A stretch of 19,381 nt of DNA. It comes from a virus (taxonomy: Duplodnaviria; Heunggongvirae; Uroviricota; Caudoviricetes). A program made the position numbers and the translations under genes. Of this stretch, positions 1,901 through 19,381 are shown piece by piece (the first letter of the stretch is position 1; every line of letters starts with the position of its first letter). Location: positions 1 to 19,381 of IMG/VR virus record IMGVR_UViG_2861069343_000003; one strand, written 5' to 3'. The notes beneath the pieces were generated by a model. That model saw nothing but the letters and a program-made list of their open reading frames with translations, ran no database searches and was not told the origin of the DNA.

Positions 1901-1963
1901 ATATGTAATCCATTAAGTCATTAAAATATATCGCAATAAACACACTATTTAAACTCACAAACC

Positions 1964-2004
1964 AGCCGCAGTATCCTGCCATGGCAAGTTGCTGCGGCTT
2001 TTTA
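1964..2004. terminator. bidirectional rho-independent terminator between the convergent RT operon and the prophage late genes
   Basis: 8-bp stem AGCCGCAG (1964-1971) pairs with CTGCGGCT (1992-1999), with an inner palindrome TGCCATGGCA. TTTT (2000-2003) follows on the + strand and GGTTTGTGAGTTT follows on the - strand. It coincides with the switch from AT-rich to roughly 50% GC sequence. Confidence 0.7.
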
Positions 2005-2007
2005 TGT

Positions 2008-2301
2008 TCAACGGATCAACAGCCAGATCAGAAGACACGCTACCATCGGCACAGCAAAATCCATCAGGCTTGCCACATCCCATGCGCGTGGATCAAAACC
2101 GCCCCACCACGGCATGTTAATCCGCTTGCCATGCCCGAACATTTCAATCCAGCGATATTATGCTTGGGTGTGTTCGCCCGCAATGAAGAACGTACAACTG
2201 GCTATCGCTCCGTAAACCCAGTTTCCGGTAAAAAGCCCCACCAGTATCTGCGCAGCCACAGCACAAAGTGCATGAAGGAAAGGTGTTATACCCATTTTCA
2301 T
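2008..2301 (-). pseudogene. small hydrophobic prophage membrane protein interrupted by an in-frame TAA (97 codons in total if read through)
   Basis: Hand translation of the - strand from ATG 2301 (or ATG 2295, with AGGA upstream) gives MKMGITPFLHALCAVAAQILVGLFTGNWVYGAIASCTFFIAGEHTQA. A TAA follows at 2158-2160. The same frame then continues YRWIEMFGHGKRINMPWWGGFDPRAWDVASLMDFAVPMVACLLIWLLIR to TGA at 2008-2010. Each half is under 60 aa, so neither appears in the ORF track. The + strand ORF 1981-2313 listed there is the antisense artefact. Confidence 0.55.
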
Positions 2302-2337
2302 CCTACCCAATAAAACGGGGCGCACAGCCCCTTAATA

Positions 2338-5300: not shown

Positions 5301-6039
5301 TTGCCGCCACTTTTGAAGCCGACGCATCCCGGGCTGAGGTGGCAGCTTCTGACGCTTTCGTGGTCGCGGTGGATGCAGAAGTGGCCGCAGATTTTTGTGA
5401 TGCTGCGGCATTCGTTTCTGACGTTTTCGCTGCACCGGCACTGGTGGCTGCCGCGCTTTTTGAAGACTCTGCAGCGGCAGCACTTTTTGATGCTTCAGTA
5501 GCCTTTGTTGATGCCGTTCCTGCGCTGGAAGACGCTGACTGAGCCGACGACGCGGCCTGTCCGGCTGACGTGCTGGCTGCGCGTGCGGAGTCCGCAGCAT
5601 CAGTCGCATGGGTTGCCGCCTCACGGGCTGATGTGCGGGCATCACTGGCTGACTTCTTCGCGGCTGCCGTGTTCTGTGCTACTGCGGACGCGTTACGCGC
5701 CACCTCTTCCACCATCAGTTCAAAGCGGCGCAGTGCCTCCGGACGGACATCATCCTCCGTCATGGCACCGAGAAAATCATTCAGCGTACCCGGTTGTGAG
5801 TCTTCATACACGGTGATGGTCCCGGCATGCGATGGCGGGAAGCCTTCCACCAACAGAATAACGCTGTACTGACCGTACTCAACGTCCATGCTGTAACGCC
5901 CGGCTTCATCCGGGTTTTCTGAGGCCACTGTGTTCACCACCACCGTGGTGCTGTTGCGCCTGGCCTTTAGCTGAATGGTGCAGTTTTGTATCGGCTTACC
6001 TGCGCCATCTTTCAGTACACCTGAAATCCGTACTGCCAT
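2338..6039 (-). CDS. stf: side tail fibre protein: lambda Stf-like N-terminus, divergent distal part and C-terminal S74 chaperone domain
   Basis: The N-terminal ~340 aa (MAVRISGVLKDGAGKPIQNCTIQLKARRNSTTVVVNTV...GRYSMDVEYGQYSVIL...TITVYEDSQPGTLNDFL, then the Ala/Ser-rich AAKTSETNA repeats) match lambda Stf (orf-401) as I remember it. The middle ~760 aa is beta-rich and unrelated to lambda Stf; it contains the tail-fibre motif GDVMSGDLDI. The C-terminus is an S74 domain. ATG at 6037-6039, preceded by GGGGGGA. Confidence 0.9.
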   Translation of the reverse strand: MAVRISGVLKDGAGKPIQNCTIQLKARRNSTTVVVNTVASENPDEAGRYSMDVEYGQYSVILLVEGFPPSHAGTITVYEDSQPGTLNDFLGAMTEDDVRPEALRRFELMVEEVARNASAVAQNTAAAKKSASDARTSAREAATHATDAADSARAASTSAGQAASSAQSASSSAGTASTKATEASKSAAAAESSKSAAATSAGAAKTSETNAAASQKSAATSASTATTKASEAATSARDASASKVAAKSSETSAASSAGSAASSATAAGNSAKAAKTSETNADNSAQAAADSQTASANSATAAKKSETNAKNSEAAAKVSETNAKASENKAKEYLDKVGGLVSPMTQYDWPVVTGNESFYIKIAKLSDPGSGNCHVTLMVTNAGNYGSPYGNIDFIEISARGLPSLLSADNVSRHLSIRRLGSTGLTDNNQMRYGLVKGDGFIEVWAFQRAFINGAKVAVLAQTARPELYIPDGFVKQTAAPSGYVESPVVRIYDQLNKPTKADLGLSNAMLTGAFGLGGSGISTNGKMSDVEILKALRDKGGHFWRGDRPTGSTATIYSHGSGIFSRCGDTWSAINIDYSTAKIKIYAGNDARLNNGTFSVNELYGSANKPSKSDVGLGNVTNDAQVKKSGDVMSGDLDILKETPSIRLKSAKGTAHLWFMNNDGSERGVVWSPENNESLGEIHIRAKNTKGESSGDFIVRHDGRVEARNLKITYKISAATAEFANTSTSSDNTTVSIKGSQHTPLVLTSNNTIKNLSIGFKVDDVDQKYLGIAGDGDLYFGSYSDHTKNSKVITQAKLDSGVTVGGKTTFSDLATFNAGMAGSIEPETIDNKTIDLNDLIIANTVAGSVKYYQCKTVAGGAYITNKPDGVSGNFLLRVESTRKTTGSDYAIMQTLIGSDTKRIYVRFVVNGSWTEWSQVVVSGWNQDVTVRSLTSTTPSKLGGGRVDVLGSTSDYSSMNCAVRGVDSTGTNSAWSVGTSKNTGKMLCLKNHRSSAQVLLNGDDGAVQLLSGTVNGATAQALTINKDEVNSTADLVIRKQTGTGNRFALLNSGNSELPVSIRVWGSSTRQNVFEVGTSAAYLFYAQKTTDGQNLTVNGSVNCTTLNQSSDRRLKENIEIIDNATDAIRKINGYTYTLKENGAHCAGVIAQEVEEAIPEAVGSFIHYGEELQGPTVDGNELREETRYLNVDYAAVTGLLVQVARETDDRVTSLEEENAELKQRLSAIEAALASK
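2341..2715 (-). other. intramolecular chaperone auto-processing domain (peptidase S74 type) at the tail fibre C-terminus
   Basis: The last 125 aa begin SDRRLKENIEIIDNATDAIRKINGYTYTLKENGAHCAGVIAQEVEEAIPEAV and end in a coiled-coil, LEEENAELKQRLSAIEAALASK. This is the typical S-D-x-R-x-K self-cleavage signature of endosialidase/tailspike chaperone domains. The Ser codon is at 2713-2715. Confidence 0.8.
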
Positions 6040-6050
6040 ATTCCCCCCAC

Positions 6051-6075
6051 AAAAAAACCCGCCTGAACCGGCGGG
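6051..6075 (-). terminator. rho-independent terminator downstream of lom
   Basis: The - strand reads CCCGCC-GGTTCA-GGCGGG followed by TTTTTTTG (stem 6058-6063 / 6070-6075, A-run 6051-6057 on the + strand). It lies 12 nt upstream of the stf start. Confidence 0.8.
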
Positions 6076-6103
6076 CTGTCATAACACTGTGTTACCTGGC
6101 TAA

Positions 6104-6703
6104 TCAGAATTTATAACCGACACCCACGATGAAACCGTCAGTGCGCCAGTCACCACTGCCGGAACCTTCATAAGCAATATCAATGGCCACGGATTCGGTC
6201 GGGTTAAACTGCACGCCAGCCCCCCACGCCAGAGACGTGTTGCTGTGGCGACCGTCATCACTTCCGGTCAGCACATCGTGCGTTTTCCCCTTGTTGTCAG
6301 TTACGCGGAGATAATCCCCGGAGAAAGTCGACACACGGCTGTAAGCCACACCCGCCATCGCATACGCGCTGAACCATTCATTCACGCGCACAGACGGCCC
6401 CGCCATCACGCTGAACCAGCGGTTACGCACGGAATCCTCATGCCAGCGGGTATCGCTGTAATGCGTTTTTTGCTCATCTTCAGCGTTGGCATAACTGAAT
6501 GACGTAATCAGCCCCAGCGTGTCCGTAAACTCATAACGGTATTTCACGTTAATCCCGTTCAGATTATCGCTGCCGGGAGCGTTCGTACGGGCATGAAGAT
6601 ACCCTGCGCTCAGTGTGGCCTGCTGCTCAGACGCCCATGCAGGCGCACCGGATACGGCCAGACAGATGGCTGCGGACAAAATGGCTGCACAAACTTTACG
6701 CAT
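6104..6703 (-). CDS. lom: Lom outer-membrane protein (Ail/Lom family beta-barrel), a prophage moron
   Basis: The 199-aa product MRKVCAAILSAAICLAVSGAPAWASE...SLAWGAGVQFNPTESVAIDIAYEGSGSGDWRTDGFIVGVGYKF is near-identical to lambda Lom as I recall it. It has a signal peptide ending AWA-SE and an SD GAGAGG before the ATG at 6701-6703. Confidence 0.95.
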   Translation of the reverse strand: MRKVCAAILSAAICLAVSGAPAWASEQQATLSAGYLHARTNAPGSDNLNGINVKYRYEFTDTLGLITSFSYANAEDEQKTHYSDTRWHEDSVRNRWFSVMAGPSVRVNEWFSAYAMAGVAYSRVSTFSGDYLRVTDNKGKTHDVLTGSDDGRHSNTSLAWGAGVQFNPTESVAIDIAYEGSGSGDWRTDGFIVGVGYKF

Positions 6704-6725
6704 AATTACCTCTCGCTTTTCTGCA

Positions 6726-6752
6726 ATAAAAAAGGCGCCAGAAATGGCGCCC
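6726..6752 (-). terminator. rho-independent terminator between J and lom
   Basis: The - strand reads GGCGCC-ATTTCT-GGCGCC followed by TTTTTTATT (stem 6734-6739 / 6746-6751). Confidence 0.8.
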
Positions 6753-6771
6753 GCATATGGGTTATGAAAAT

Positions 6772-9700
6772 TCAGCTAATCGTGATACCTGCTGTGGATT
6801 TCTTCATCACCACAACCAGCAAATCACTGATACTGGCTGTGGGATACCAGTCATTTACCAGCCACGCTGATACCGAAAACTCCAGCGTCATGTGACCGCG
6901 ACCAGCAGGCATATCAATAACACCTGTATAAACCAGCGTATTATCCAGCGCGGTACGGTTATAAATTTCAGCACCGTTTTTCTTCACTATCAGGCGGCAT
7001 GACGAATAAATATCGTTATTCTCCCGCTCATGTTTAGCGCCACGAAACGCCACCGCGGGAATAACAATCTGCCGGTCAAACGGCTGATCGTCATAAACCC
7101 TGACGGTAATGGTCCCTGATGGCCACCGCTCCGGTGCACGGGAGTCCCGGGGGAAAGCTTTGCCCACTGTTTTAACGAGATCGCCTTCAATCTGGTTCGC
7201 AGACAGTTTTCCCAGAACCCGACAGTTTTCATTTATCGTGACATTGTTGAGCGTCCCGGCGTTCGCATTCACACTGCCACTGATATCCGCATTTTTCGCC
7301 GTCAGTCGCCCGTCCGGTGTAAGGGAAAATACCGGAGGATTACCGCCGCTGGTAATGGTGGGAGCCGTCAGATATTTCAGGAACACTTCGTTCATGAATA
7401 TCTGATCGCCCTGACCAACAAACATCGGCTTTGTGTTGCCATTCGCAGGATTAATCATCGCAATCCTGTCTGCCGCCAGCAGCACCTGACTCTGCATGCC
7501 GTCAGGGGTGTTCTCAATACCGGCACCAATACCCGCGATATAAAGGCGTCCGTCCTGCATCTGCTGCAGCTTCACAGCCCACATGCTGTTCAGGTTATTA
7601 TTTGTATCAACCTGAACCTTCTGTATCTGCTGAATTGCCGCACTCTGGTCTTCCAGTTTCTTATTGACGGTCTGTGTGATTTCATTGCTGACATCCGTAA
7701 TGGATGTCCTGATTTCAGCCAGGTCAGGCGCAAGCTGACCGTTATCAATCTGCGTCCACAGCTCCTGAGCCAGATGGGTTTTCCCTATCTCGCCTTTGAA
7801 AAAATCCAGATAGCCGGATGCGTCATCACTCGGCTGACCAACAGCCTCCACGAATGCCGATTTGCCAACGGTGTTCACACTGCGAACGTAAAAATAATAA
7901 TTATGGCCCGGTTTGATATTGATACTGGCGGCTATCCAGTACAACGCCGTACCAAGATAGCGTGCTGTGGTTTCAACCTGCCTGATATCCGCAATCCGCT
8001 TTTCCGAGAACCAGAACTCAAACTGTACCGTCGGATCATAAACCGCAAGATGCGGCGTGGCGGTTATCTGAAAATAGCCCGGCGTCAGCTCAATCCGCGA
8101 CGGCGCTGCCGGTGCGGCAATCCGGAACGATACCGACGCCGGATCGCCCTGCTGCCCCCACGCATTTACTGCCCGGACTGTCAGCCTGTAGTTCCCCAGA
8201 GCCAGTTGTGTGAAGCGGTAAGTGGTTTCCGTCGTCCGGGCCGTGCTGACCAGCCGCTCACTGCCGTCATCCGCTGCCACGGTCAGGCGAAGCAGGAAGC
8301 TCACGCCCTTCACCACCTTCGGCGTGTCCCAGCGGGCCAGCACCTGGTATTCCCCGCTGTCTGCGGTGACTTCTGCGGTCAGATGCTGCACTGCTGGCGG
8401 CGTGACACCATTCACCGTGCCGCTCTGGTCGCCGTCAAAGTGCGCCCCGTTATCCACGATGGCCTCTTTTTCCGGTACATGCTGCACGGCAGTGATGGCA
8501 TACGTGCCGTCATCGTTCTCACGGATACTCACGCAGCGGAACAGGCGCTGGCGCAGCGTCGGCAGCTTCAGCCCCCACACGCTGTACTCGGCAACGCCGT
8601 CAGGAAGCCGGCTCACTTTCACCTTCACGCCGTCGGTGATGGACTGGACCTCCACGCTGACCGGATTGCCACTTCCGTCAACCAGGCTTATCAGCGTGGT
8701 ACCGGAGGATGGCAGCGTGATTTCACGGTCGAGCGTCAGCGTCCGGGTCTGGCTGTTCACCGCCAGCACGCGCCCGCCGGTGCTGATACCGGCATAGTCA
8801 TCATCGCAGATTTCAATGACATCGCCCGGTACATGGCGAAGCCCTTCAGCACCCACGCTGAAGTCCACGGTCTGCGTTTCCAGCAGCTCCGTTTTAATCA
8901 GCCACAGCCCGGCGCGGTGCGCCTGCCCCCGACTGGTACAGCCAAACGCATCCATCTTCGTGACGTTACGACCATAACGGGCAATGGCCTGCGAGTCCTC
9001 CACAAGCTCTGTTGCCGTCTCCCAGCCGTTATCCGGGTCAATCCAGTTCACTTCAACGGCATTATGGCGGTCTTTCAGGGCGCTGAAGCTGTAGCGGAAT
9101 GGTGCGCCATCATCCGGCATCACCACATTACTGCGGTTATAGGTCCACACCTTATCCGATGGTCGGTCCTGCACGAACGTCAGCGTCTGCCCGTTCCATA
9201 CCGGCATACAGCGCATCGCCGAGCAGAAATCACTGAGCACATCCCACGCCTTACGTTGTGTGGTCAGGTAAGCGTTACAGGTGATGCGCGGCTCCGTACC
9301 GCCAAAGCCGTCCGGCACCGACTGGTCGCAATTCTGGCCGATGACATACAGCGCCCATTTGTCCACATCCGCCGCACCGAGACGTTTCCCCATGCCGTAG
9401 CGCGGGTGGGTCAGCATATCCCACAGACACCAGGCCATGTTGTTGCTGTATGACGGTTTAAACGTCCCGTCCCAGATACCGCTGTATTGCCGCGTCTGCG
9501 GGTTATAATTCGACGGCACCTGCAGAATACGCCCGCGAAGATGATAATTACGGCTCACCTGCTGGCTGCCGAACTGCTCCGAATCCACCTGTACGCCGAC
9601 CAGTGCCGTGTTCGGGTAGCACTGTTTCACATCGATGATTTCGGTGTATGACGACCAGAGCGTTTTGTTCTGCAGCTGGTCTGTGGTGCTGTCCGGCGTC

Positions 9701-10251
9701 ATCCTGCGCATCCGGATGTTGAACGGGCGCGGCGGCAGATTATCCACCACTACCGAGGCCAGATACTGCGAGGTGGTTTTGCCCTTAATGGTGATGTCTT
9801 TTTCCGTCACCCAGCCACCGTTACGCTGTATCTGAACCAGCAGGCGGACTTCCGACGGATTCCGGTCCCCCTTTGAAGTGGTTTCCACCAGTGCCTGCAC
9901 ACCGAAGGTAAAGCGCAGACGGTCAATGTTTGCCGACGTGATGGTCCGGGTGATCGGCGTGTCGTATTTCACTTCCGTGCCCAGTACCGTCTCGGAACCT
10001 GATGATTCAAATCCCTCCGGCGGTGTCTGTTCCTGCTCACCTGCCCGGAACACCACCGTGACACCGGAGATGTTAGTATTCCCCTCACTGTCCAGCACCG
10101 GTGTACTGTTCAGCAGCACGCTTTTTAATCCATCCACCGGACCTTCAACCGGCCCTTCGCTGATGGCATCGATCACACTCAGCAACTGCGTGGACTTCAG
10201 GTTGTCCTTTGCTTCGCGCGGGGTATGCCCCTTACTGCTGCCTTTACCCAT
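6772..10251 (-). CDS. J: tail tip / host specificity protein J
   Basis: 1159 aa. The N-terminus [34 protein letters not shown] and the overall length match lambda J (1132 aa). SD GAGGA precedes the ATG at 10249-10251. Confidence 0.96.
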
Positions 10252-10270
10252 TCCTCACGCCCCATAAACG

Positions 10271-10293
10271 ATAAAACCGCCCGGAGGCGGTTT
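10271..10293 (-). terminator. terminator-like hairpin in the I-J intergenic region
   Basis: The - strand reads AAACCGCC-TCCG-GGCGGTTTTAT (stem 10276-10281 / 10286-10291). It sits inside the late operon, so Q-type antitermination probably reads through it. Confidence 0.4.
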
Positions 10294-10311
10294 CACATAA
10301 AACGTTTTTCA

Positions 10312-10953
10312 TCAGCGACCAATCACCACAACCTGACCACCGTCCCCTTCGTCTGCCGTGCTGATCTCCTGAGAAACCACGCGTGATCCCACGCGCATTT
10401 CACCGTACAGAACGGGCAGAACATTGCCCTGGGCAACCATATTATCCAGTGAAGAAAAATAGGTGTTCTGTTTGCCGTTATCCGTTGTCTGTGTGCGGGG
10501 GGTTTTGGGTTTAGGGGCCAGCATCTGTGCAACACCGCCAAGCGTCATACTGGCACCGAGAGAAAACAGCAGATTACTCGCCATAATTCCTACCCCCGGC
10601 ATCCATATAGCAACCGCCATAACAGCCGCCCCCAGCACAGCCTGAAACACACCGCCACTTTTGGCTCCTGCCAGACGCGGCACGATATGGATCACAGCAC
10701 CATTTGCCAGCGGTTCATTAAGACGGGCTGATAATTCCGTTTCACCTGTATCACGCCCGGCAATGCGTACCTGATACCAGCCGTCGCTCAGCTTCTGACG
10801 AAACGCCGGGAGCTGTGTGGCCAGTGCCCGGATGGCTTCAGCCCCCGTTTTCACACGCAGATCGATGCGGCGGCCAAATCGTTGTAAATCCCCGTAAAGG
10901 CAGATGCGCGCCATGCCCGGTGACGCCAGAGGGAGTGTGTGCGTCGCTGCCAT
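10312..10953 (-). CDS. I: tail tip assembly protein I
   Basis: The 213-aa product MAATHTLPLASPGMARICLYGDLQRFGRRIDLRVKTGAEAIRALATQLPAFRQKLSDGWYQVRIAGRD...QEISTADEGDGGQVVVIGR matches lambda I. It overlaps the end of K by 103 nt, as in lambda. Confidence 0.94.
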   Translation of the reverse strand: MAATHTLPLASPGMARICLYGDLQRFGRRIDLRVKTGAEAIRALATQLPAFRQKLSDGWYQVRIAGRDTGETELSARLNEPLANGAVIHIVPRLAGAKSGGVFQAVLGAAVMAVAIWMPGVGIMASNLLFSLGASMTLGGVAQMLAPKPKTPRTQTTDNGKQNTYFSSLDNMVAQGNVLPVLYGEMRVGSRVVSQEISTADEGDGGQVVVIGR

Positions 10954-11594
10954 TTGTCGGTATACCTCTCTCGTTTGCTCAGTTGTTCAGGAATATGGTG
11001 CAGCAGCTCGCCGTCGCCGCAGTAAATTGCGGCGTGATTCGGCACCGATGAACCAAAACAGCACAGCAGCACATCGCCCGGCTGTGCCGCTGACAACGGC
11101 ACCTGATACAGCCCCGTCGCCTCCAGATTATCCAGATAGAGATTCTGGCCGTTACGCCACCAGTCATCCTCACGATGAAAGTCCGGCATCTCAATCCCCG
11201 CCAGATGATAAGCATCCCGGAACAGTGTGTAACAGTCCGTCACACCGTGCTCAAAGCGCCGCCCGGTGAGATGCGGCACACAGCGGAACTTATGAATCGT
11301 CCCCCGGCAGACCAGCCACCACGGCAAATCACTCTGCACCTGCAGCCGCCGGTCGGCCTCACTCAGCCAGGGCAGACCACCGGGGTGGCTGTGGACCAGC
11401 GCCACAATCTCACCCTGCATTTCTGCCTGCAGCCAGTCTTCCGGCGACATACGGAAATACGCCTCCGGCTCACCGGAGATATTCACGCAGGGGAAATATC
11501 TTTCCCCCTCCGGCGTGCTTACCACGAAGCCGCACGACTCCGCTGGCGCACATCGCCGGGCGTGCGCCAGAATCGCTGATTCTGTCTGTGTCAT
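10851..11594 (-). CDS. K: tail tip assembly protein K (MPN/JAB plus NlpC/P60-like domains)
   Basis: The 247-aa ORF begins MTQTESAILAHARRCAPAESCGFVV and contains HSHPGG (JAB motif) and GVTDCYTLFRDAY (NlpC/P60 Cys), matching lambda K. The classical 199-aa lambda annotation would start at the internal MSPEDW. Confidence 0.94.
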   Translation of the reverse strand: MTQTESAILAHARRCAPAESCGFVVSTPEGERYFPCVNISGEPEAYFRMSPEDWLQAEMQGEIVALVHSHPGGLPWLSEADRRLQVQSDLPWWLVCRGTIHKFRCVPHLTGRRFEHGVTDCYTLFRDAYHLAGIEMPDFHREDDWWRNGQNLYLDNLEATGLYQVPLSAAQPGDVLLCCFGSSVPNHAAIYCGDGELLHHIPEQLSKRERYTDKWQRRTHSLWRHRAWRASAFTGIYNDLAAASICV

Positions 11595-11599
11595 GGGAT

Positions 11600-12082
11600 T
11601 TACTGCGAAAGTTTGTTAATGGAAAGGAAGCCGCCAAAGTTGCCGACGTTATTGCGGAACTTACAACCGCTCAGGCATTTGCTGCATTTATCCTTCGTGA
11701 TATCGGACGTTGGCTGGTCATATTCATCCGCGACAGCCGGACCGCTATAACCGCACTCGTCACCGCGATAGGTCCAGGTGCAGGTGTTGGCCAGCATGAT
11801 ACGTCCCGGAAAAACAGCGCCATCCGTTTCCGTCGGCGTGGACAGTACAAAGGAGGCACTCACCGCGCTCAGTTCGCTGCACTGCTCAATGCGCCAGCGG
11901 CTGATCACCTCCTGCTCCGGATCGGCATAACTGTTTCCGTTGACGAAGTTCACCGCATCCAGAAAACGGGCGTAAACATTACGCCGGACCACCGTTCCGC
12001 CGACCAGACTCTGCATATCTTCCGCCATCCCGGTGACCATACCGTACAGGTTAGAAACCGTCAGCGTGGGGCGCGTACCGCT
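11600..12082 (-). pseudogene. L: 5'-truncated minor tail protein L (about the last 160 of about 232 codons retained)
   Basis: ORF 11600-12040 (MVTGMAEDMQSLVGGTVVRR...FGGFLSINKLSQ) matches the C-terminal part of lambda L. The in-frame match continues upstream through TRPTLTVSNLYG to about 12079-12085. The frame then hits TGA at 12107-12109 and similarity is lost. No M, H, T, G, V, U or Z genes, and no head genes, follow. Confidence 0.85.
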
Positions 12083-12088
12083 CTTTTT

Positions 12089-12177
12089 ACAAAACAGAGA
12101 AGAGCATCACCGGACGACGGGCTCATAACCCAATCCATCCGGGCGGCAGTCACCGCAGGTGTTCTTCTCTGTTTTGT
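12089..12177. repeat. 89-bp unit bounded by perfect 15-bp inverted repeats, at the L truncation junction
   Basis: ACAAAACAGAGAAGA (12089-12103) is the exact reverse complement of TCTTCTCTGTTTTGT (12163-12177). The spacer is 59 bp and contains the direct repeat TCACCG twice (12107-12112 and 12150-12155). Confidence 0.8.
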
Positions 12178-12225
12178 GGAGAAACCAACCGACCTTGCAG
12201 GGTCGATATGATGGGGAGCAGCAAA

Positions 12226-12588
12226 ATGGCTAGCGAACGCAGTACTGATGTGCAGGCATTTATCGGGGAGCTGGACGGCGGCGTATTTGAAACCAAAATC
12301 GGCGCAGTTCTCAGTGAAGTCGCTTCCGGTGTGATGAACACGAAAACCAAAGGTAAGGTCTCGCTCAACCTGGAAATCGAACCGTTTGATGAGAACCGTG
12401 TGAAAATCAAACACAAACTCTCATATGTTCGCCCGACTAACCGCGGGAAAATTTCCGAAGAAGACACCACCGAAACGCCGATGTATGTCAATCGCGGTGG
12501 TCGCCTGACTATTCTGCAGGAAGACCAGGGACAATTACTGACTCTTGCCGGTGAACCTGACGGAAAACTCCGCGCAGCAGGTCATTAA
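12226..12588 (+). CDS. yfdP: YfdP-like prophage protein of unknown function
   Basis: The ORF track starts at 12208. ATG 12226 is preceded by GGGGAG (12213-12218) and gives 120 aa (MASERSTDVQAFIGELDGG...), the length I recall for K-12 YfdP. It sits immediately upstream of yfdQ, as in CPS-53. Confidence 0.6.
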   Translation: MASERSTDVQAFIGELDGGVFETKIGAVLSEVASGVMNTKTKGKVSLNLEIEPFDENRVKIKHKLSYVRPTNRGKISEEDTTETPMYVNRGGRLTILQEDQGQLLTLAGEPDGKLRAAGH

Positions 12589-12653
12589 TATCGTTCTTAA
12601 TTAACTGATTATTTATCTCATCACTGAATATCTTTATATAGTGAGGACTTATT

Positions 12654-13478
12654 ATGTCTCAGAACTTAGACGCAACCGCAATTAATCAAATCCATGCCCT
12701 TATTTCTGCTCAGGGTGTTAATGAAATTATCAGTAAAATTGGTGCCGATGCTGTGGCATTGCCTGAGAATTTCCGCATTCATGATCTGGAAAAATTTAAT
12801 TTAAATCGCTTCCGTTTCCGTGGTGCGCTTTCCACTGCCAGCATCGATGACTTTACCCGTTATTCTAAAGATCTTGCAGATGAAGGCACCCGCTGCTTTA
12901 TCGATGCTGATAATATGCGAGCCGTCAGTGTGCTTAACCTGGGTACTATTGATGAACCAGGTCACGCAGATAACACCGCCACTCTCAAACTGAAAAAGAC
13001 AGCACCGTTCTCTGCCCTGTTGTCTGTTAACGGCGAGCGTAACTCCCAGAAGTCACTGGCAGAATGGATTGAAGACTGGGCCGACTACCTTGTGGGCTTT
13101 GATGCTAATGGTGACGCCATTCAGGCAACAAAAGCGGCTGCGGCGGTCCGTAAAATCACGATTGAAGCAAACCAGACCGCTGATTTTGAAGACAATGACT
13201 TCAGCGGCAAACGCTCTCTGATGGAGTCTGTCGAAGCGAAAACCAAAGACATTATGCCAGTAGCATTTGAGTTTAAATGCGTTCCATTTGAAGGCCTGAA
13301 AGAACGTCCGTTTAAATTACGCCTCAGCATTATCACTGGTGATCGCCCTGTACTGGTTCTGCGCATTATTCAGCTGGAAGCAGTACAGGAAGAAATGGCT
13401 AACGAATTTCGTGATCTGCTTGTTGAAAAATTCAAAGACAGCAAAGTAGAAACCTTTATTGGTACTTTCACCGCCTGA
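12654..13478 (+). CDS. yfdQ: YfdQ-like prophage protein (DUF2303 family)
   Basis: 274 aa, the same length as K-12 YfdQ. SD GAGGA lies 7 nt upstream. Its position between the yfdP-like and yfdR-like genes supports the call. Confidence 0.75.
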
Positions 13479-13491
13479 TTTCATTACTGCA

Positions 13492-13514
13492 AATGCCCCT
13501 GCGGGGGCATTTAT
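13492..13514 (+). terminator. terminator-like hairpin after yfdQ (a weaker second hairpin lies at 13537-13560)
   Basis: AATGCCCC-TGC-GGGGGCATTTAT. The second hairpin is TCGCC-TGAT-GGCGA followed by GGGTTTTCTTT. Confidence 0.5.
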
Positions 13515-13605
13515 GGAAACGTAATTAACTCAATAATCGCCTGATGGCGAGGGTTTTCTTTAACCAAAATTCAGCGCGGTGCAGCGCATATACGTGGAGA
13601 ACAAA

Positions 13606-14142
13606 ATGTCATTTATTAAAACTTTTTCCGGGAAGCATTTTTATTATGACAGGATAAATAAAGACGACATCGATATTAACGATATCGCGGTTTCCCTTTC
13701 AAATATCTGTCGCTTTGCCGGTCATCTTTCGCACTTCTACAGCGTCGCCCAACATGCGGTTCTTTGCAGCCAGCTGGTGCCGCAGGAATTTGCTTTTGAA
13801 GCGTTAATGCATGATGCAACAGAAGCGTATTGCCAGGACATTCCCGCACCACTGAAACGCCTTCTTCCTGACTATAAACGGATGGAAGAAAAAATAGACG
13901 CCGTAATCCGTGAGAAATACGGGTTACCCCCGGTTATGAGCACGCCAGTGAAATATGCCGATCTCATCATGCTGGCAACCGAACGCCGCGATCTCGGACT
14001 TGATGATGGCTCTTTCTGGCCTGTACTGGAAGGTATCCCGGCAACAGAGATGTTCAAAGTGATTCCACTGGCTCCAGGCCATGCCTACGGGATGTTTATG
14101 GAACGTTTTAACGAGTTATCGGAGTTACGCAAATGCGCATGA
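13606..14142 (+). CDS. yfdR: HD-domain phosphohydrolase YfdR (5'-nucleotidase family; reported DnaA-binding prophage protein)
   Basis: The ORF track starts at GTG 13579. ATG 13606 follows GGAGA and gives 178 aa starting MSFIKTFSGKHFYYD, the length and N-terminus I recall for K-12 YfdR. HD signature residues are visible in AQHAVL and in ALMHDATEAY. Confidence 0.85.
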   Translation: MSFIKTFSGKHFYYDRINKDDIDINDIAVSLSNICRFAGHLSHFYSVAQHAVLCSQLVPQEFAFEALMHDATEAYCQDIPAPLKRLLPDYKRMEEKIDAVIREKYGLPPVMSTPVKYADLIMLATERRDLGLDDGSFWPVLEGIPATEMFKVIPLAPGHAYGMFMERFNELSELRKCA

Positions 14143-14495
14143 ATGTTTTCGAAATGGAAGGGTTTCTTCGCGGGAAATGTGTACCGCGAGATCTGAAAGT
14201 GAACGAAACAAATGCTGAGTACCTGGTACGTAAATTCGATGCGCTTGAAGCTAAATGTGCGGCACTGGAAAACAAAATAATACCAGTGTCAGCTGAACTA
14301 CCACCAGCAAATGAAAGTGTTCTGTTATTTGATGCTAACGGAGAAGGCTGGCTGATTGGCTGGCGTTCTCTCTGGTACACCTGGGGACAAAAAGAAACCG
14401 GAGAATGGCAGTGGACATTTCAGGTCGGGGACATTGAAAGCGTCAATATCACTCACTGGGCAGTAATGCCAAAAGCACCGGAGGCTGGAGCATAA
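14133..14495 (+). CDS. yfdS: YfdS-like prophage protein
   Basis: 120 aa, the same length as K-12 YfdS. The start overlaps the yfdR stop by 10 nt, with GGAG 8 nt upstream. The stop overlaps the next start (TAATG). Confidence 0.65.
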   Translation: MRMNVFEMEGFLRGKCVPRDLKVNETNAEYLVRKFDALEAKCAALENKIIPVSAELPPANESVLLFDANGEGWLIGWRSLWYTWGQKETGEWQWTFQVGDIESVNITHWAVMPKAPEAGA

Positions 14496-15115
14496 TGACC
14501 ACATTTACCGATAAAGAACTGATTAAAGAAATCAAAGAGCGTATCAGCAGCCTGGAGGTTCGAGACGATATTGAGCGCCGTGCTTATGAAATTGCTCTGG
14601 CATCGCTGGAAGAGGAGCCGGTGGCATGGCTACATTCAGACAATGGCTTAGGTATTCCAGCAATAACCAGGAGTAAAAACATTGCTGACAGTTGGTTATC
14701 AAAGGGCTGGTATGTTCAGCCGCTATATATAGCCAAGCCAGTGCCGGTGGTGCCAGATGCTCGTCCGACTTTAAATAATGGCATAGTCGGTTTTGATGAA
14801 GGCTGGAACGCCTGCCGCACCACCATGCTTCACGGTGTCAAACCTGTAAGCCAGACTTACAAGTTGAACAAGCTGTCTGACAACTCTCCGGTAACTCCGG
14901 ATGGTTGGATAAGCTGTAGTGAGCGAATGCCGAACGATAAACAATATGTTTGGTGTTGGGGTAAGTCTTACGGCTGGACTGAGTGCGATACCTTCGAAGG
15001 GTATTACGATTGTTCGAGAAACAAATGGTGGGCAGTTACTGACGATGGGGAAGAACCGGCATTGAAAGTAACCCACTGGATGCCGCTACCGGAGCCACCG
15101 CAGGAGGTGAAGTAA
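14495..15115 (+). CDS. DUF551-type prophage protein (YfdT-like, full length)
   Basis: 206 aa. The C-terminal Trp/Cys-rich part (GWISCSERMPNDKQYVWCWG...WWAVTDDGEE...VTHWMPLPEPP) resembles DUF551 as I remember it. It is coupled on both sides by TAATG overlaps. Confidence 0.6.
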   Translation: MTTFTDKELIKEIKERISSLEVRDDIERRAYEIALASLEEEPVAWLHSDNGLGIPAITRSKNIADSWLSKGWYVQPLYIAKPVPVVPDARPTLNNGIVGFDEGWNACRTTMLHGVKPVSQTYKLNKLSDNSPVTPDGWISCSERMPNDKQYVWCWGKSYGWTECDTFEGYYDCSRNKWWAVTDDGEEPALKVTHWMPLPEPPQEVK

Positions 15116-15309
15116 TGAACAACTTAATGACAACTAAACAAGTCGCCGACTTCTGTGGCGTTTCAGTATCGACAGTTCTTCGCTGGAACAGCGTAAACAG
15201 GAGAACTGGCCAGAAATATAGGCCTGACTTTCCAGATCCTGATATTAAATCCTGCCCCAATAAATGGGCATCACACAAGATATACAGGTTTGCGGGAGTT
15301 ATTGAGTAA
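15115..15309 (+). CDS. small HTH DNA-binding protein, AlpA/excisionase-like
   Basis: 64 aa. LMTTKQVADFCGVSVSTVLRWN is a typical AlpA/Xis helix-turn-helix. A strong SD AGGAGGTGA precedes it. It is the last gene of the early operon and faces the integrase end. Confidence 0.6.
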   Translation: MNNLMTTKQVADFCGVSVSTVLRWNSVNRRTGQKYRPDFPDPDIKSCPNKWASHKIYRFAGVIE

Positions 15310-15322
15310 TACGTATTAGTTC

Positions 15323-15387
15323 AGATGTGAGCTAACACATCTATGGCACAGAGCTAAACCTAATCTGACTGTCTACTCTGTGCCATA
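15323..15387. repeat. two adjacent hairpins between the convergent excisionase and 870-aa genes
   Basis: Hairpin 1: AGATGTG (15323-15329) / CACATCT (15336-15342). Hairpin 2: a perfect 12-bp stem TATGGCACAGAG (15342-15353) / CTCTGTGCCATA (15376-15387) with a 22-nt loop. Neither is followed by a U-tract in either direction. Confidence 0.7.
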
Positions 15388-15442
15388 AGTGGATGTTAAT
15401 TACTTCTTGGTATTTTAATGGTTGGATAGCTTATCAAGATTA

Positions 15443-18049
15443 CTAATCACCCTGTGATGTAAAATAAAACCAATGGTATTCTAGAGCTTGCATAGACAAC
15501 CCAACCTTGTCCCTCAATAGGACACCATTCAGCTCCTGATAGTACCTATCGCGCACCATATCACTTACGTGAATCCTTAAAGTCGCTGGGTCAATAGATA
15601 TTAGATAGTTATCAAAGAGACGATGTATATCAGTACGCAATAACAAGCCATTTTTTATATGATTATCCTTATCTCCTCTGTAAGGATAAATATGAGCTGC
15701 ATCAAGTACTGCTATTGTTTTGCACCCAGTAAAGGCACATTGCCCCCAAACGTTTATCAGTTTATTTCTGAAGTCGCTTTGACCTATACGTATCGTGACG
15801 TTTCTATTTATAACCTTTCGTTCATCAGAGTTATTTATTTTAAAACTCCCTGCTGTTGAAAAATCAAATTTTTCAGTCGCACTAAATATTTTTTTAGATT
15901 GTTTTTTTACTTTTGCAAGCTGTAAATCTGACTTTATTTGTAAGGGTTTTGAGTTTTCTTCATCAAACGATGGAAGTTGAAGTTCTTTAATCATGCTGGT
16001 AGATAGAAAATTTTTGTAACTCATTAACTTAAAATCTAATCCTCGCTCATAACGAATTTTAGAGAGCACTATTGCAGCTTCTTCAATGTATTTAAAACTA
16101 CTTTTCCTTTTATCCCATAATTGAGATAAACAATCTGCATTTAACCTATCATATCTTGATAAAATCTCACCCAAACTGCTGGCTTTAGCGGCGCTATCAT
16201 AGTTTATATACTGTTTTTCTTGGGAATCTTCAATGGAATCCAGAATAAAATTTATATTTACATGATTATCTGCATCTGCATCTGCAGATGCAGATGAATC
16301 ATTAAAATTATCGTAGTCAAGAGAATTTTGATCACTCCAAATAGGTAGCGATAGATAGCAAATATTATCAATGCTGTCGTCCACCAACATTAATTTTTGG
16401 TGGAGTAAAAATAATATAACTGAAGCTTCAAGGTAATTCATTTCTTGTGACAAGAATTTTTCTTTAAGCATATCAAAGTCATATTGTACGTATTCATTTT
16501 TTTTCTTTGATATTACGGAGAGTTGCTCTTCACTTAAGACCACTGGCCTGTCTTCTGATATATTACGAAGTAAGTATGAAATCAATTTTTTTTGATTTTT
16601 TTTAGAATCTTCAGACCTAGGAGGTTCGAGAAACACACCTTCAAGTCTATCCAATGCTTTAAGGCAACTTCCCGCAAGCCTAGTCATCGCATCTTTTCTT
16701 GTTTGAATTAGAGGATCTGCATAGATAACAAAATTATCCCCATTACGAATATGAGCTATTTCAAGCTGATATACATCTAGATTTTTTATAAGTTTAAATA
16801 CAAATCCGTATTTTTGCATTCTATGCAAAGTCAGTGTCGGTATAATATCTTTATTAGATTCTTCATCCAAATTATAGTTTTTTATTCTTTTGTACAACCA
16901 ATTTGTTGCAGAGGAAGAGCAAATTAACTCATTATATTGAATTTTACTATTTTTAGTTATCAGATTTAGAAGAGACATTCCAAACAATGCCTGAATACAA
17001 TCTACATAATAAGATATAGTTGTATAATCTGGATGTCCTTTATAGGGGAGAGAATCTATTGAAATAAAACCTGAGTTATAGAATCTCATAAAGTTTTTTT
17101 CAGATAACACCATGATCCCTAACGTAGTTCTGTCAATAACATTCTGTCCATTTTTTATTATCTCAAGTAGGCTTACTGAAGCTAGTAAGGAAATATAATG
17201 CGAACCTAAAGTAGCGAGATCTCTGTGCGAACTTATAGATCTATTTTTACCCTTTATTCTAGGGGGTATAAAAGCCTGGATTGAATTAAAGTTATTTGAA
17301 AAACCAAAAGCCATGTTCAATTCATTGTTGATGTAACACTCTTTAACATTCGGTTTCTGTACGCCACCCCATGCTGAAATAATACTATTAGATTTTAATA
17401 TTTGTTTTTTATTGTTTTTCAAATTCAAATGATTGCAAACTAAACTGGCAACATTATTCTCTGCTTTTTTTTTACTCTCACCACTTCCGATAAATATCTG
17501 TCCATTAGGAAGTGCTATTTCAGACTCATATATTGGTGCATGCTCGGTCCCACCAGCCAAGGTGGTTTTGTATGTAGGGATTATGTGTTGATGTCTTTGG
17601 AAATATTCATGTAAAAGAGTTTTTGGGGGTTTGCCAACAAATGACTCCGTAATAGAAAGGCTTTCAACAAAAAATTTGAGATGTAATATGATATCACAAT
17701 TAGATATCGCCCCTAGGTAAAATTGAAATATTTGAATTATCATAGAAGATGAGTTGATTTCTTCTTGTTTTACTCCAGGACCAAATTCTGTTTGTTGGTA
17801 GACTTTTGTTAAGGGAAAATTTGTAACAACAAGCTCTCTTAGTTTTTTCTTCAGGCTGCTAGTCATAATGCTTAAATTGTTACCATCCGCACCTTCTATA
17901 CTCAGAGACCGACAAGCGCAGATTAAATCCTCAAGCGACTTACCAACTGATACAGTTGCGTTAAACAATTCAGTATTGCAATTAAAAGATGAACGATGAC
18001 TTATCTGAATATAATTTTCGTTGATATGATTTATGAATAACTTATTCAT
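15443..18049 (-). CDS. large AT-rich cargo protein: two tandem (degenerate RNase III + dsRBD) modules, an unassigned helical/acidic region, and a C-terminal HNH (HNH_2-type) nuclease; candidate anti-phage effector
   Basis: The ORF track starts at GTG 18055 (870 aa; residue numbers below use that numbering). The GTG lies inside the SD GAGGTG (18058-18053), so ATG 18049 (residue 3) is the likelier start. The stop is TAG at 15443-15445. Domain evidence is given in the sub-features. A sigma70-like promoter lies upstream. Confidence 0.9.
   Translation of the reverse strand: [868 protein letters not shown]
15566..15802 (-). other. C-terminal HNH nuclease domain (HNH_2-like)
   Basis: [67 protein letters not shown] follows the pattern R-x-GQ-x-FR...C-x-x-TG...AAHI-x-P...NGL-x-L...H-x-x-FD that I associate with Pfam HNH_2. 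The candidate catalytic triad is H788, N802 and H811. Confidence 0.8.
16643..17233 (-). other. module 2: second degenerate RNase III-like domain (aa ~245-365) plus a divergent dsRBD-like segment (aa ~402-471)
   Basis: Written as this protein / Rnc. [18 protein letters not shown] / [39 protein letters not shown] / [37 protein letters not shown] / [16 protein letters not shown]. E38, E41, D45 and E117 align to R, A, S and Q; only D114 is kept. The dsRBD-like end is [21 protein letters not shown] / [21 protein letters not shown]. This match is weaker than module 1. The sub-feature coordinates begin at the [8 protein letters not shown]-equivalent motif. Confidence 0.5.
17426..17998 (-). other. 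module 1: catalytically degenerate RNase III-like domain (aa ~20-135) plus dsRBD (aa 142-210)
   Basis: By-eye alignment to E. coli Rnc, written as this protein / Rnc. [18 protein letters not shown] / [26 protein letters not shown] / [23 protein letters not shown] / [36 protein letters not shown] / [41 protein letters not shown] / [21 protein letters not shown]. The Rnc acidic residues E38, E41, D45, D114 and E117 align to T, F, V, Q and Q. Confidence 0.7.
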
Positions 18050-18081
18050 TTTCACCTCGTGTATTATTCGATAAAGATCAC

Positions 18082-18110
18082 ATTGTACGTGATATCAACT
18101 ACTTGCTCAA
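18082..18110 (-). promoter_or_regulatory. candidate sigma70 promoter for the 870-aa gene
   Basis: On the - strand: -35 TTGAGC (18110-18105), a 17-nt spacer, then -10 TACAAT (18087-18082). It lies about 30 nt upstream of the SD and ATG. A short inverted repeat ATCAC/GTGAT (18077-18081 / 18089-18093) brackets the -10. This is a motif-only prediction. Confidence 0.45.
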
Positions 18111-18157
18111 AGCAGATCGTCATATCCTATTGCGTTCTAGCTACGTAAACTATCCTA

Positions 18158-19381
18158 TCAGTTAGAGTCTGAGTTAGTACAAGTAACAATCGATTCAACT
18201 CTCTCCCACCATGCCTGGTAGGCTTTACGCTGTTCTTCTAGATAATCGCTCTTGTCATAAACTTGCCATACCCCTGGCAGTTTATGACCTAGCATTATTT
18301 CTGCAATATGAGGCGCAGTAAGATCAGAAAAGTTTGTTCGTGCTGTTCGTCTCAAATCATGAAGAGACCAATGAGGAAATTGATACCCCAAACGCCGCCA
18401 TGCGTACTGCATTAAATTGTAAGGCAGCGACTGCAATGATGTCCGACCAACTGGTTCCCTGCTTCCTTCCTTAGTAAAAAGCATATCGGAACCGTTGTTC
18501 ATAGAGATAACGTATTTTATAATCTCTTCAACCGGTTCAATAATGGGCCGCTTTAGCGGTTCGCCTGTTATATCCCCTGTCTTATGTCGTTCTGGTGGTA
18601 CAGTCCATATCTTATTAATGAAATCAAAATCGTCCACCTTGGCAGTAATTAGCTCTGAACTACGGCAACCAAAATGAAGCAATAGTTTAATGAAGGCCCG
18701 GTATTTAGGAACCATTCGAGAACCATCGATCGCAGCATAAAGGATTTTAATTTCATCATGTGTCAGAAACCGTTTCTTCTGACCTTTACGGATATCCATA
18801 TCTTTACCCGTGATATCCGACAGCGGGCGAGTTTCAATGAGCTTTCTCTTATACGCCCAGACATGGGCCTGCTTTGCGTTAATTAGCAATCGGTCTGCTA
18901 TTGCTGGAGTCTTAGTGCTAAGAGGCTCCAGGACTTCTAACCAATCATGCAATGTAGCTGCATCGTTAGGGATATTCCCGATTTTAGAGAACAGGTGCAG
19001 CTCAAACGAGCGGAGTATCTGTTCAGAACCTTTTTTATTTTTTACACAATATGCTTCATACCAGGCACGGATCACAGACTCTACCGTCATGGCTTCAGTA
19101 GCTTTTCGTTTTTCAGCCTGCTTGACCAATCGTGGATTACGGTTTGACTCGAGTTCACCACGGAGACGGATAACTTCTTCTCTGGCCTCTTTTAATCCAG
19201 TTGCCGGGTAAGTTCCGATATCAAGACGCTCACCTTTCCCTGCCCATTGATAACGATATTGGAACACTACGCGACCTTTCGGTGATACTCTGACAGACAA
19301 ACCATCACGATCGGATTTAACCAAAACCTTATCACGTTCCTTTCCAACGACTGAACGCAACCACGCATCAGACAGCGCCAT
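18158..19381 (-). CDS. tyrosine recombinase / phage integrase, P4-type (DUF4102-like N-terminal arm-binding domain)
   Basis: 407 aa, with the ATG exactly at the window edge (19379-19381). The N-terminus MALSDAWLRSVVGK...DGLSVRVSPKGRVVFQYRYQWAGKGERLDIGTYPATGLKEAREE is the typical P4-integrase N-domain. Catalytic signature residues are visible in FGCRSSE (Arg), HDLRRT (His-x-x-Arg), LGH (His) and VYD (Tyr). Confidence 0.95.
   Translation of the reverse strand: MALSDAWLRSVVGKERDKVLVKSDRDGLSVRVSPKGRVVFQYRYQWAGKGERLDIGTYPATGLKEAREEVIRLRGELESNRNPRLVKQAEKRKATEAMTVESVIRAWYEAYCVKNKKGSEQILRSFELHLFSKIGNIPNDAATLHDWLEVLEPLSTKTPAIADRLLINAKQAHVWAYKRKLIETRPLSDITGKDMDIRKGQKKRFLTHDEIKILYAAIDGSRMVPKYRAFIKLLLHFGCRSSELITAKVDDFDFINKIWTVPPERHKTGDITGEPLKRPIIEPVEEIIKYVISMNNGSDMLFTKEGSREPVGRTSLQSLPYNLMQYAWRRLGYQFPHWSLHDLRRTARTNFSDLTAPHIAEIMLGHKLPGVWQVYDKSDYLEEQRKAYQAWWERVESIVTCTNSDSN

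Follow-up and report, generated by a model that had tools for sequence, protein, structure and literature searches.

On the minus strand of a 19,381-nucleotide stretch of DNA from a virus of the class Caudoviricetes (IMG/VR record IMGVR_UViG_2861069343_000003, positions 1 to 19,381; hereafter the window), one gene encodes an 868-residue protein whose N-terminal 476 residues are, on strong evidence, an entire RNase III of the bacterial type duplicated in tandem, each copy comprising a catalytic domain followed by a double-stranded RNA-binding domain (dsRBD). Both RNase III sites appear dead, and the chain ends in an HNH_2 nuclease domain for which the retention of an intact His-Me finger active site is also strongly supported. 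Bacterial RNase III is a homodimer of single domains, and a tandem pair of domains forming an intramolecular dimer is the textbook hallmark of eukaryotic Dicer and Drosha. The union of tandem dead RNase III with HNH_2 is undescribed in the catalogues and literature that we searched, and represents a new variation in architecture among RNase III proteins and sensor-HNH proteins alike. We propose, giving the idea about an even chance of being right, that the protein is a single-polypeptide sensor-effector in which a non-cleaving reader of A-form duplexes, that is, of double-stranded RNA (dsRNA), controls an HNH DNase, probably in anti-phage defence.

A tandem duplication of a bacterial-type RNase III

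An earlier note, made from the letters of the window and a list of its open reading frames (ORFs), had claimed that two RNase III-like domains occur in one polypeptide (interval 16643-17998), each followed by a dsRBD-like segment. This interval is enclosed by a single frame, ORF 15443-18055, on the minus strand. Residue numbers given here refer to the 868-amino acid (aa) protein; the 870-aa numbering of that note runs two higher. The boundaries of the parts of the protein are collected in Table 1.

The homology of the first unit to RNase III extends over its entire length. A profile of 19 family sequences aligned residues 7-217 with residues 7-219 of the Aquifex chains 1yz9, 2ez6 and 1yyk and residues 13-216 with E. 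coli RNase III (7r97), and these matches to solved bacterial enzymes ran end to end with expectation (E) values of 4e-21 to 6e-22; the same profile also matched RNase III domain (RIIID) b of Drosha together with its dsRBD. When the first catalytic domain (module 1, aa 1-138) was compared by hhalign with 15 canonical catalytic domains, it aligned over 137 columns with P = 3.6e-6. Module 1 retains the landmarks H18-R-S20, corresponding to the "THRS" motif, and G36, corresponding to G44 of "FLGD". In an exhaustive HMMER search, canonical RNases III of 220-240 aa (P0056, P0128, P0139 and P0140) aligned to residues ~9-215 of the query, a span that corresponds to an entire RNase III protein, so that the similarity is not restricted to the dsRBD. 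The dsRBD that follows (dsRBD1) is canonical: it is recognised by the Pfam model dsrm (aa 142-208, E 2.6e-10) and by hhalign (P = 5e-33), and its RNA-contact motifs KTxLQE (K143/E148), GxxH (G167/H170) and SKKxAE (S192-K-K-x-A-E) are kept in 16-20 of 20 relatives. A basic linker then leads to the second unit; in the structural model described below, the predicted local distance difference test score (pLDDT) dips to ~58 at aa 211-220, and there is little regular structure before a helix at aa 223-231.

The second catalytic domain (module 2, aa 241-398) is more divergent. A comparison of aa 236-398 with the same 15 canonical domains gave P = 1e-4 over 111 columns, and negative controls gave P of ~0.5-0.6. 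In this alignment the module 2 sequence "QAFIPPR" pairs with the canonical "QALTHRS", and another stretch pairs with "NERLEFLGD". A hidden Markov model (HMM) built from module 2 alone matches the catalytic region of several canonical RNases III, and module 2 of a sister protein, P0066, matches Pfam Ribonucleas_3_3 (E 8.6e-5). We thus rejected the alternative that module 2 is unrelated to RNase III on the basis of the hhalign comparison, the P0066 Pfam match and the HMM matches.

The segment that follows module 2 (the dsRBD2-like element, aa 399-476) bears out the second dsRBD of the earlier note at the level of the fold, so that the claim of a dsRBD after each domain holds firmly for the first and in a qualified manner for the second. 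In the model it adopts an alpha-beta-beta-beta-alpha arrangement (helix 402-413, strands 416-423, 426-433 and 439-443, helix 451-469; pLDDT 88-92). Helix 1 keeps an (E/H)R..Q..G pattern and helix 2 begins with (T/S)(R/K)K(E/D), whereas the GPxH loop is absent. Two sister proteins, P0027 and P0045, possess a canonical dsRBD recognisable by Pfam at the equivalent position, and the ancestral layout is for this reason taken to be (RIIID-dsRBD) x2.

Loss of the catalytic carboxylates

Active RNases III are recognised by an ERLEFLGD signature and four metal-binding carboxylates (E41, D45, D114 and E117 in the E. coli enzyme). Neither module carries this set. In module 1, E38 falls in a gap near N30, and E41, D45, D114 and E117 are replaced by V33, K37, Q106 and Q109, respectively; these columns are variable and non-acidic over the family, apart from a frequent Lys that fills the place of D45 (10 of 18 sequences). 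In module 2, the residues equivalent to E38, E41, D45, D114 and E117 are R276, A279, S283, D350 and Q353. Column statistics over 22 relatives showed that the catalytic carboxylates are gone from both modules save for the D114 equivalent of module 2 (D350), as expected from the earlier note, which had described the acidic positions as replaced. Its residues for module 2 (R, A, S, D, Q) were those of the profile alignment. For module 1 it had listed T, F, V, Q and Q, of which the two glutamines stand and the first three do not, the register having been off by ~4 residues; this error leaves the conclusion unchanged, since the profile alignment also shows no catalytic carboxylates there.

In the Aquifex enzyme, E40, D44, D107 and E110 hold the metals, and E110, the equivalent of E117, bridges both Mg ions and is essential (PMC3867540). 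With one of the four carboxylates left in module 2, no cleavage by the RNase III mechanism is expected, and the loss of the E117 equivalent predicts that dsRNA would not be cleaved. An active RNase was likewise rejected as an interpretation, because profile alignments and column statistics put no catalytic carboxylate set in either module.

The replacements in module 2 are themselves conserved: R is present in 20 of 22 sequences, A in 22/22, A or S in 21/21, D in 20/21 and Q in 21/21. Unlike those of module 1, the replacements in module 2 thus appear, from these column counts, to be under strong constraint by purifying selection. Such a conserved, remodelled dead site suggests selection for binding rather than cutting.

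A predicted intramolecular pseudo-dimer

The structure of the N-terminal half was predicted with AlphaFold2. A run with 4 close homologues gave a pLDDT of 42, with dsRBD1 alone confident; rerun with 22 relatives, the N-terminal 486 residues were modelled with a pLDDT of 86.4 and a predicted template modelling score (pTM) of 0.79. The all-helical catalytic-domain fold by which members of the RNase III superfamily are recognised, whether by profile or by structure, is present. When the model was compared with the PDB using Foldseek, E. coli RNase III ranked first (207 columns), followed by Dicer, DCL and Drosha chains over 480-560 columns (for DCL4, 260 residues at 3.6 Å). The two catalytic domains are predicted to pack against each other as an intramolecular pseudo-dimer that resembles the Drosha/Dicer processing centre, which is the packing that the earlier note had anticipated. 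Each of the three outcomes that would have counted against that note (no such fold or packing, conserved acidic residues at the catalytic positions, an unrelated module 2) was looked for, and none was obtained.

The likeness to Dicer and Drosha goes as far as the tandem pair and its predicted packing. In Drosha and Dicer (class 3/4) both sites are active, whereas here both are dead; the eukaryotic order is RIIIDa-RIIIDb-dsRBD, whereas here it is RIIID-dsRBD-RIIID-dsRBD; and PAZ, platform, helicase or CED domains (Pfam), like the Drosha central domain, are absent from the phage-borne protein. On account of this order, the resemblance looks convergent. Module 1 most resembles bacterial RNase III, which suggests an independent duplication, and the tandem arrangement probably arose on its own by duplication of a whole rnc-type gene.

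An alternative view of the model is that the RNase III-like domains pair between chains (1:1', 2:2' or 1:2'), forming dimers or filaments, and that the Dicer/Drosha-like pairing within the chain is an artefact of modelling. Bacterial RNase III domains are obligate dimerisers (PMC3867540), the prediction was made on a monomer and could not sample intermolecular contacts, and AlphaFold2 has seen many Dicer and Drosha structures. We consider pairing between chains very unlikely and continue with the intramolecular pseudo-dimer as the favoured arrangement.

The HNH_2 nuclease domain and the middle region

The earlier note had regarded the platform as a sensor rather than a nuclease. This description fits the N-terminal half; it fails for the whole chain, which ends in an HNH_2 domain with invariant H-N-H residues, for which reason the platform is better regarded as a sensor belonging to a nuclease. 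The HNH_2 domain matches PF13391 over aa 771-820 with E 1.5e-13, above the gathering cut-off. H786, N800, H809, D807, D813, R791 and C771 are invariant in the 17 of 17 relatives with intact C-termini, and the catalytic His, the Asn and the metal-binding His of the His-Me finger are all present. Among solved structures its best relative is VcaM4I, a modification-dependent restriction enzyme of the EVE-HNH type (PDB 6yex; E 6.6e-7).

This kinship bears on two alternative views of the ligand. The protein could be a type IV-like restriction enzyme, in which the tandem pseudo-RNase III reads hypermodified or unusual phage DNA and the HNH domain cuts nearby, as in SRA-, EVE- and SBD-HNH enzymes. Modification-dependent enzymes such as VcaM4I use HNH_2 as their nuclease, the remodelled and conserved site of module 2 could be a new ligand pocket, and among the relatives one gene lies directly after two GmrSD-type genes and another beside a small HNH_2 gene. 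However, searches with Pfam, NCBIfam and PDB profiles found no modified-DNA reader (PUA/EVE, SRA, SBD or DUF3427), the sensor is an RNase III plus dsRBD with intact RNA-contact motifs, and adjacency to GmrSD marks a defence island, not a common ligand; this reading is in our judgement improbable.

A second possibility is an R-loop- or RNA-DNA-hybrid-directed DNase, whose platform would read hybrids, such as those of phage or plasmid priming or of transcription R-loops, and whose HNH domain would cut DNA at or near the hybrid. A-form geometry is common to dsRNA and RNA-DNA hybrids, which counts in favour of such a ligand, as do the DNA-type HNH_2 effector with a DNA restriction enzyme as its closest solved relative and the physical link between duplex reader and DNase, which makes the simplest sense where one molecule is both ligand and substrate. 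Canonical dsRBDs and RNase III nevertheless bind hybrids far more weakly than dsRNA, dsRBD1 retains the full canonical motif set that reads the 2'-OH groups of both strands, and the data single out no hybrids. We regard a hybrid ligand as unlikely and retain dsRNA as the preferred ligand.

Between the platform and the nuclease domain lies a middle region (aa 477-745) without a Pfam or PDB sequence match. Its first part (aa 477-575) is conserved; there follow an acidic linker that varies among relatives (aa 576-625, pI 4.1), a helical motif and a basic linker. The helical motif, LW..R...F..EEAAxVLS..RYERGxDF, is conserved at aa 640-675, and the segment that holds this motif and the HNH domain (aa 615-866) recurs in otherwise unrelated short HNH_2 proteins, so that the motif looks like a shared accessory element of this HNH subfamily. 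The core of the motif, LW..R...F..EEAAxVLS..R (window ~15815-16120), occurs twice in a 399-aa Pseudomonas HNH_2 protein (locus L006, 7503-8702). The acidic linker includes a short repeat (aa 585-600, window ~16250-16300) with a 2-aa indel between near-identical E. coli alleles (868 vs 866 aa); 46%-identical relatives have, in place of the repeat, an insertion rich in Pro, Ala and Ser, which reaches ~55 aa and is less long in P0004.

Homologues and reuse of the tandem module

A word-indexed protein search returned 4 clusters only, the same 4 as with the 19-sequence profile. The exhaustive HMMER search, covering 1.84 billion cluster representatives, added ~20 full-length relatives of 790-940 aa at 20-30% identity. 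In the E. coli protein itself Pfam recognises the dsrm and HNH_2 domains only, and one family member is matched by both of the RNase III models in Pfam. With PHROGs, NCBIfam and PADLOC the matches were confined to the level of domains, namely dsRBD and HNH, and a tblastn search with the N-terminal half against 50,697 phage genomes gave no match. When genome contigs were scanned with the HNH motifs as patterns, all 80 of 80 loci encoded generic HNH_2 proteins that match aa ~600-866 only. In the full-text literature that we searched we found no description of a dsRBD-HNH or RNase III-HNH protein, of a bacterial tandem RNase III or of WP_086625076.1, the RefSeq entry for this protein.

The tandem module is also joined to other outputs. 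P0066 and P0099 (~1040 aa) possess a tandem dead-RNase III/dsRBD N-terminus, an H-box-like motif (LHDLKNQL or LHDMKNEI) and a C-terminal HATPase_c domain, and by their sequences look like cytoplasmic histidine kinases. At locus L092 (739-4553), the kinase gene overlaps by 4 bp the next gene, which encodes a protein with a receiver and an SLFN_AlbA_2 domain; the pair may form a dsRNA-sensing two-component system. In P0045 and P0123 (locus L093), a PLD/NgoFVII-like nuclease at the N-terminus precedes a dsRBD; next comes an RNase III-like domain that bears the A/S/D/Q signature, with a canonical dsRBD after it. Finally, P0027 (997 aa; locus L094, 7001-9994) has a 520-aa N-terminus of no assigned fold and carries the module, and its gene directly follows a gene for a 1625-aa NERD/kinase/SF1-helicase protein and a type I HsdR gene. 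Such modular reuse is typical of immune sensor domains.

The gene and its genomic setting

The start of the gene is most likely the ATG at 18049, which is favoured because a GAGG Shine-Dalgarno sequence precedes it and because RefSeq WP_086625076.1 agrees; the GTG at 18055 was rejected as a start, as it sits within this Shine-Dalgarno sequence. A scan for promoter-like sites found no more of them than in shuffled sequence, and the candidate upstream of the gene is weak.

Table 1. Features of the 868-aa protein gene and its upstream region (positions in the window)
Feature	Position	Strand	Remarks	Basis
Whole gene	15443..18049	-	868 codons + stop; RefSeq WP_086625076.1, "HNH endonuclease"	ORF listing; RefSeq annotation in 17 E. 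coli genomes
Module 1 (aa 1-138)	17636..18049	-	Degenerate RNase III catalytic domain	PDB profile search, hhalign, column statistics, model pLDDT ~90
dsRBD1 (aa 139-212)	17414..17635	-	Canonical dsRNA-binding domain	Pfam dsrm, hhalign, family conservation
Basic linker (aa 213-240)	17330..17413	-	pI 9.7	Model pLDDT, charge computation
Module 2 (aa 241-398)	16856..17329	-	Second RNase III-like domain; conserved remodelled site R276, A279, S283, D350, Q353	
dsRBD2-like element (aa 399-476)	16622..16855	-	Alpha-beta-beta-beta-alpha	DSSP of model, weak hhalign, sister proteins
Middle region (aa 477-745)	15815..16621	-		Family alignments
HNH_2 nuclease domain (aa 746-868)	15446..15814	-		Pfam PF13391, PDB profile, family conservation
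Promoter-like site TTGAGC-17-TACAAT	18082..18110	-	Between integrase gene and 868-aa HNH gene	Consensus scan only

Of 5426 complete E. coli genomes, 17 carry the gene. Its place is at the edge of a degraded lambdoid prophage, next to yjjG and a tRNA-Leu cluster, with a tyrosine integrase gene 102 bp upstream. Its GC content is low (0.31-0.34): the adjoining genes of the prophage have ~0.39-0.48, and the tail-gene block reaches 0.62. Relatives at 55% identity reside in lambdoid prophages in the nin region, between the replication genes and NinG/Q. Among other relatives, one lies between an integrase and a resolvase, one adjoins a PIN-domain gene and integrases, one directly follows the two GmrSD-type genes, and one adjoins the small HNH_2 gene together with an IS3 element. 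No conserved partner gene recurs over the 8 contexts compared. A 62-aa ORF lies ~30 bp upstream of the relative P0008 in two independent contigs (L083, 5528-5716; L084, 422-610), and no counterpart precedes the E. coli gene. A 239-aa ORF precedes the gene in two unrelated contexts (L082, 2153-2872; L087, 6976-7695), one being an HNH_2 protein and the other without a Pfam match.

Defence cargo typically shows a distribution like that of this gene, which is patchy, rare, low in GC and carried singly in defence islands and in the accessory slots of prophages. This distribution therefore speaks against a non-immune role, in which the protein would be an RNA-binding regulator or a processing cofactor (forming heterodimers with or titrating host RNase III, or protecting phage dsRNA) or a selfish or homing HNH element with an RNA-binding appendage. 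That the HNH residues are invariant and the long architecture is conserved favours a nuclease output, and the module is fused to other conflict-type effectors; we rate a non-immune role as quite unlikely and keep to defence as the probable one.

At the other end of the prophage remnant, positions 1-1900 (+) of the window hold further low-GC defence cargo, in which the gene for a SLATT-domain protein (1-552) overlaps that for a UG17-class defence-associated reverse transcriptase (524-1900; PADLOC E 1e-56 and 1e-158, respectively). A lambda-like tail gene L (11600-12040, -) is truncated and abuts the opposite CPS-53-type genes yfdP, yfdQ, yfdR and two DUF551 genes (12208-15309, +), which makes the element a mosaic, degraded prophage and not an intact phage. 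The side tail fibre gene (2338-6039, -) has a long Ala/Ser/Thr-rich N-terminal region of low complexity, especially at ~5000-5700, with a GC content of up to 0.58; several long but spurious ORFs arise from this region, on either strand.

Discussion

The analysis described here points to a protein in which two dead RNase III units precede an intact nuclease. We infer from its sequence that the N-terminal half would bind dsRNA. In the mechanism that we propose, the valley of the pseudo-dimer and dsRBD1, perhaps together with dsRBD2, would hold an A-form duplex without cutting it; the Arg/Gln/Asp polar cluster of module 2 and the Lys at the D45 position of module 1 would suit a grip on the phosphate backbone. 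The most likely ligand would be long or structured dsRNA produced in phage infection. Ligand binding could then license DNA cleavage by the HNH domain, either through relief of autoinhibition or through the clustering of several molecules on one duplex, and as a result phage DNA would be destroyed or the infection would abort. A precedent for the sensing step is the activation of a bacterial cyclase of the cyclic oligonucleotide-based anti-phage signalling system (CBASS) by structured phage dsRNA (cabRNA; PMC10686824).

Several observations weigh against this proposal. Support for the sensor-effector model is computational throughout, and we infer RNA binding, DNA cleavage and anti-phage activity from it; the defence role is drawn from genomic context alone. 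The hhalign probability for module 2 is 57% only, the dsRBD2-like element matches dsRBD profiles weakly (hhalign P 0.01-0.03), and a Pfam search of the E. coli protein itself gives no RNase III match. AlphaFold2 was trained on Dicer and Drosha and was given a shallow alignment (22 sequences), and intermolecular pairing of the RNase III domains is possible. HNH_2 domains usually accompany readers of modified DNA, and so a DNA ligand is possible as well. No system-specific model of PADLOC-DB v2.0.0 matches the protein, generic HNH models alone matching at aa ~713-836 in the E. coli protein and in 17 of 19 relatives. No immunity partner that might spare self-DNA is visible in the contexts compared.

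The sensor-effector that we propose can be set beside several known systems. It is like bacterial class 1 RNase III (Rnc; 7r97, 2ez6/1yz9) from end to end over aa 1-212, in fold, in the THRS-like and xLGx landmarks and in the dsRBD motifs. Rnc is, however, a homodimer with metal-binding carboxylates, whereas the phage-borne protein has two units per chain with all of the carboxylates but D350 replaced and ~390 extra residues ending in an HNH nuclease. Degenerate RNase III domains are known in mL44/mL57, the trypanosome editosome partners, RTL4/NFD2 and R3B2, but these are single domains that pair with another protein or reside in the ribosome; no tandem dead pair joined to a DNase is among them, nor any protein of bacteria or phages. 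With VcaM4I (EVE-HNH), TagI (SRA-HNH) and ScoMcrA the protein shares the C-terminal PF13391 domain, the catalytic residues, the reader-linker-HNH logic and the character of single-gene defence cargo. The readers of those enzymes have a PUA/EVE/SRA/SBD modified-base pocket, whereas the reader here is a 476-aa dead RNase III/dsRBD tandem, which is expected to bind an RNA duplex and not a modified DNA base. A comparison with predicted viral structures gave as its best matches tandem RNase III proteins of giant viruses (Satyrvirus A0A3G5AGS1 and Bodo saltans virus A0A2H4UV56; ~545 columns, TMq 0.44, E 2e-11). The hosts of these viruses are eukaryotes, and the proteins, annotated as ribonuclease 3, have no HNH domain; none of the significant matches came from a bacteriophage.

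A bacterial, phage-borne protein with this tandem arrangement blurs the textbook distinction between bacterial and eukaryotic RNase III. It is also a candidate for the direct coupling of dsRNA sensing to a nuclease, of which the literature and PADLOC-DB v2.0.0 as searched offer hardly any example from bacterial immunity; the nearest precedent found for the sensing of dsRNA is the activation of CBASS by structured phage RNA. As a tool, it might provide a programmable "bind dsRNA, cut DNA" protein, or a natural RNase III scaffold that binds dsRNA and does not cleave it. The main reason to rate the finding above a curiosity is the modular reuse of the tandem. We raise as a tentative idea, more doubtful than the sensor-effector itself, that (dead RNase III + dsRBD) x2 is a hitherto unrecognised prokaryotic module for the pattern recognition of dsRNA, sensing in the manner of PKR or Dicer and connected to HNH, PLD, NERD/helicase-type I operon and kinase outputs. 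If this were true, bacteria would sense infection through dsRNA as a generic pattern and would answer it with the destruction of DNA or with two-component signalling.

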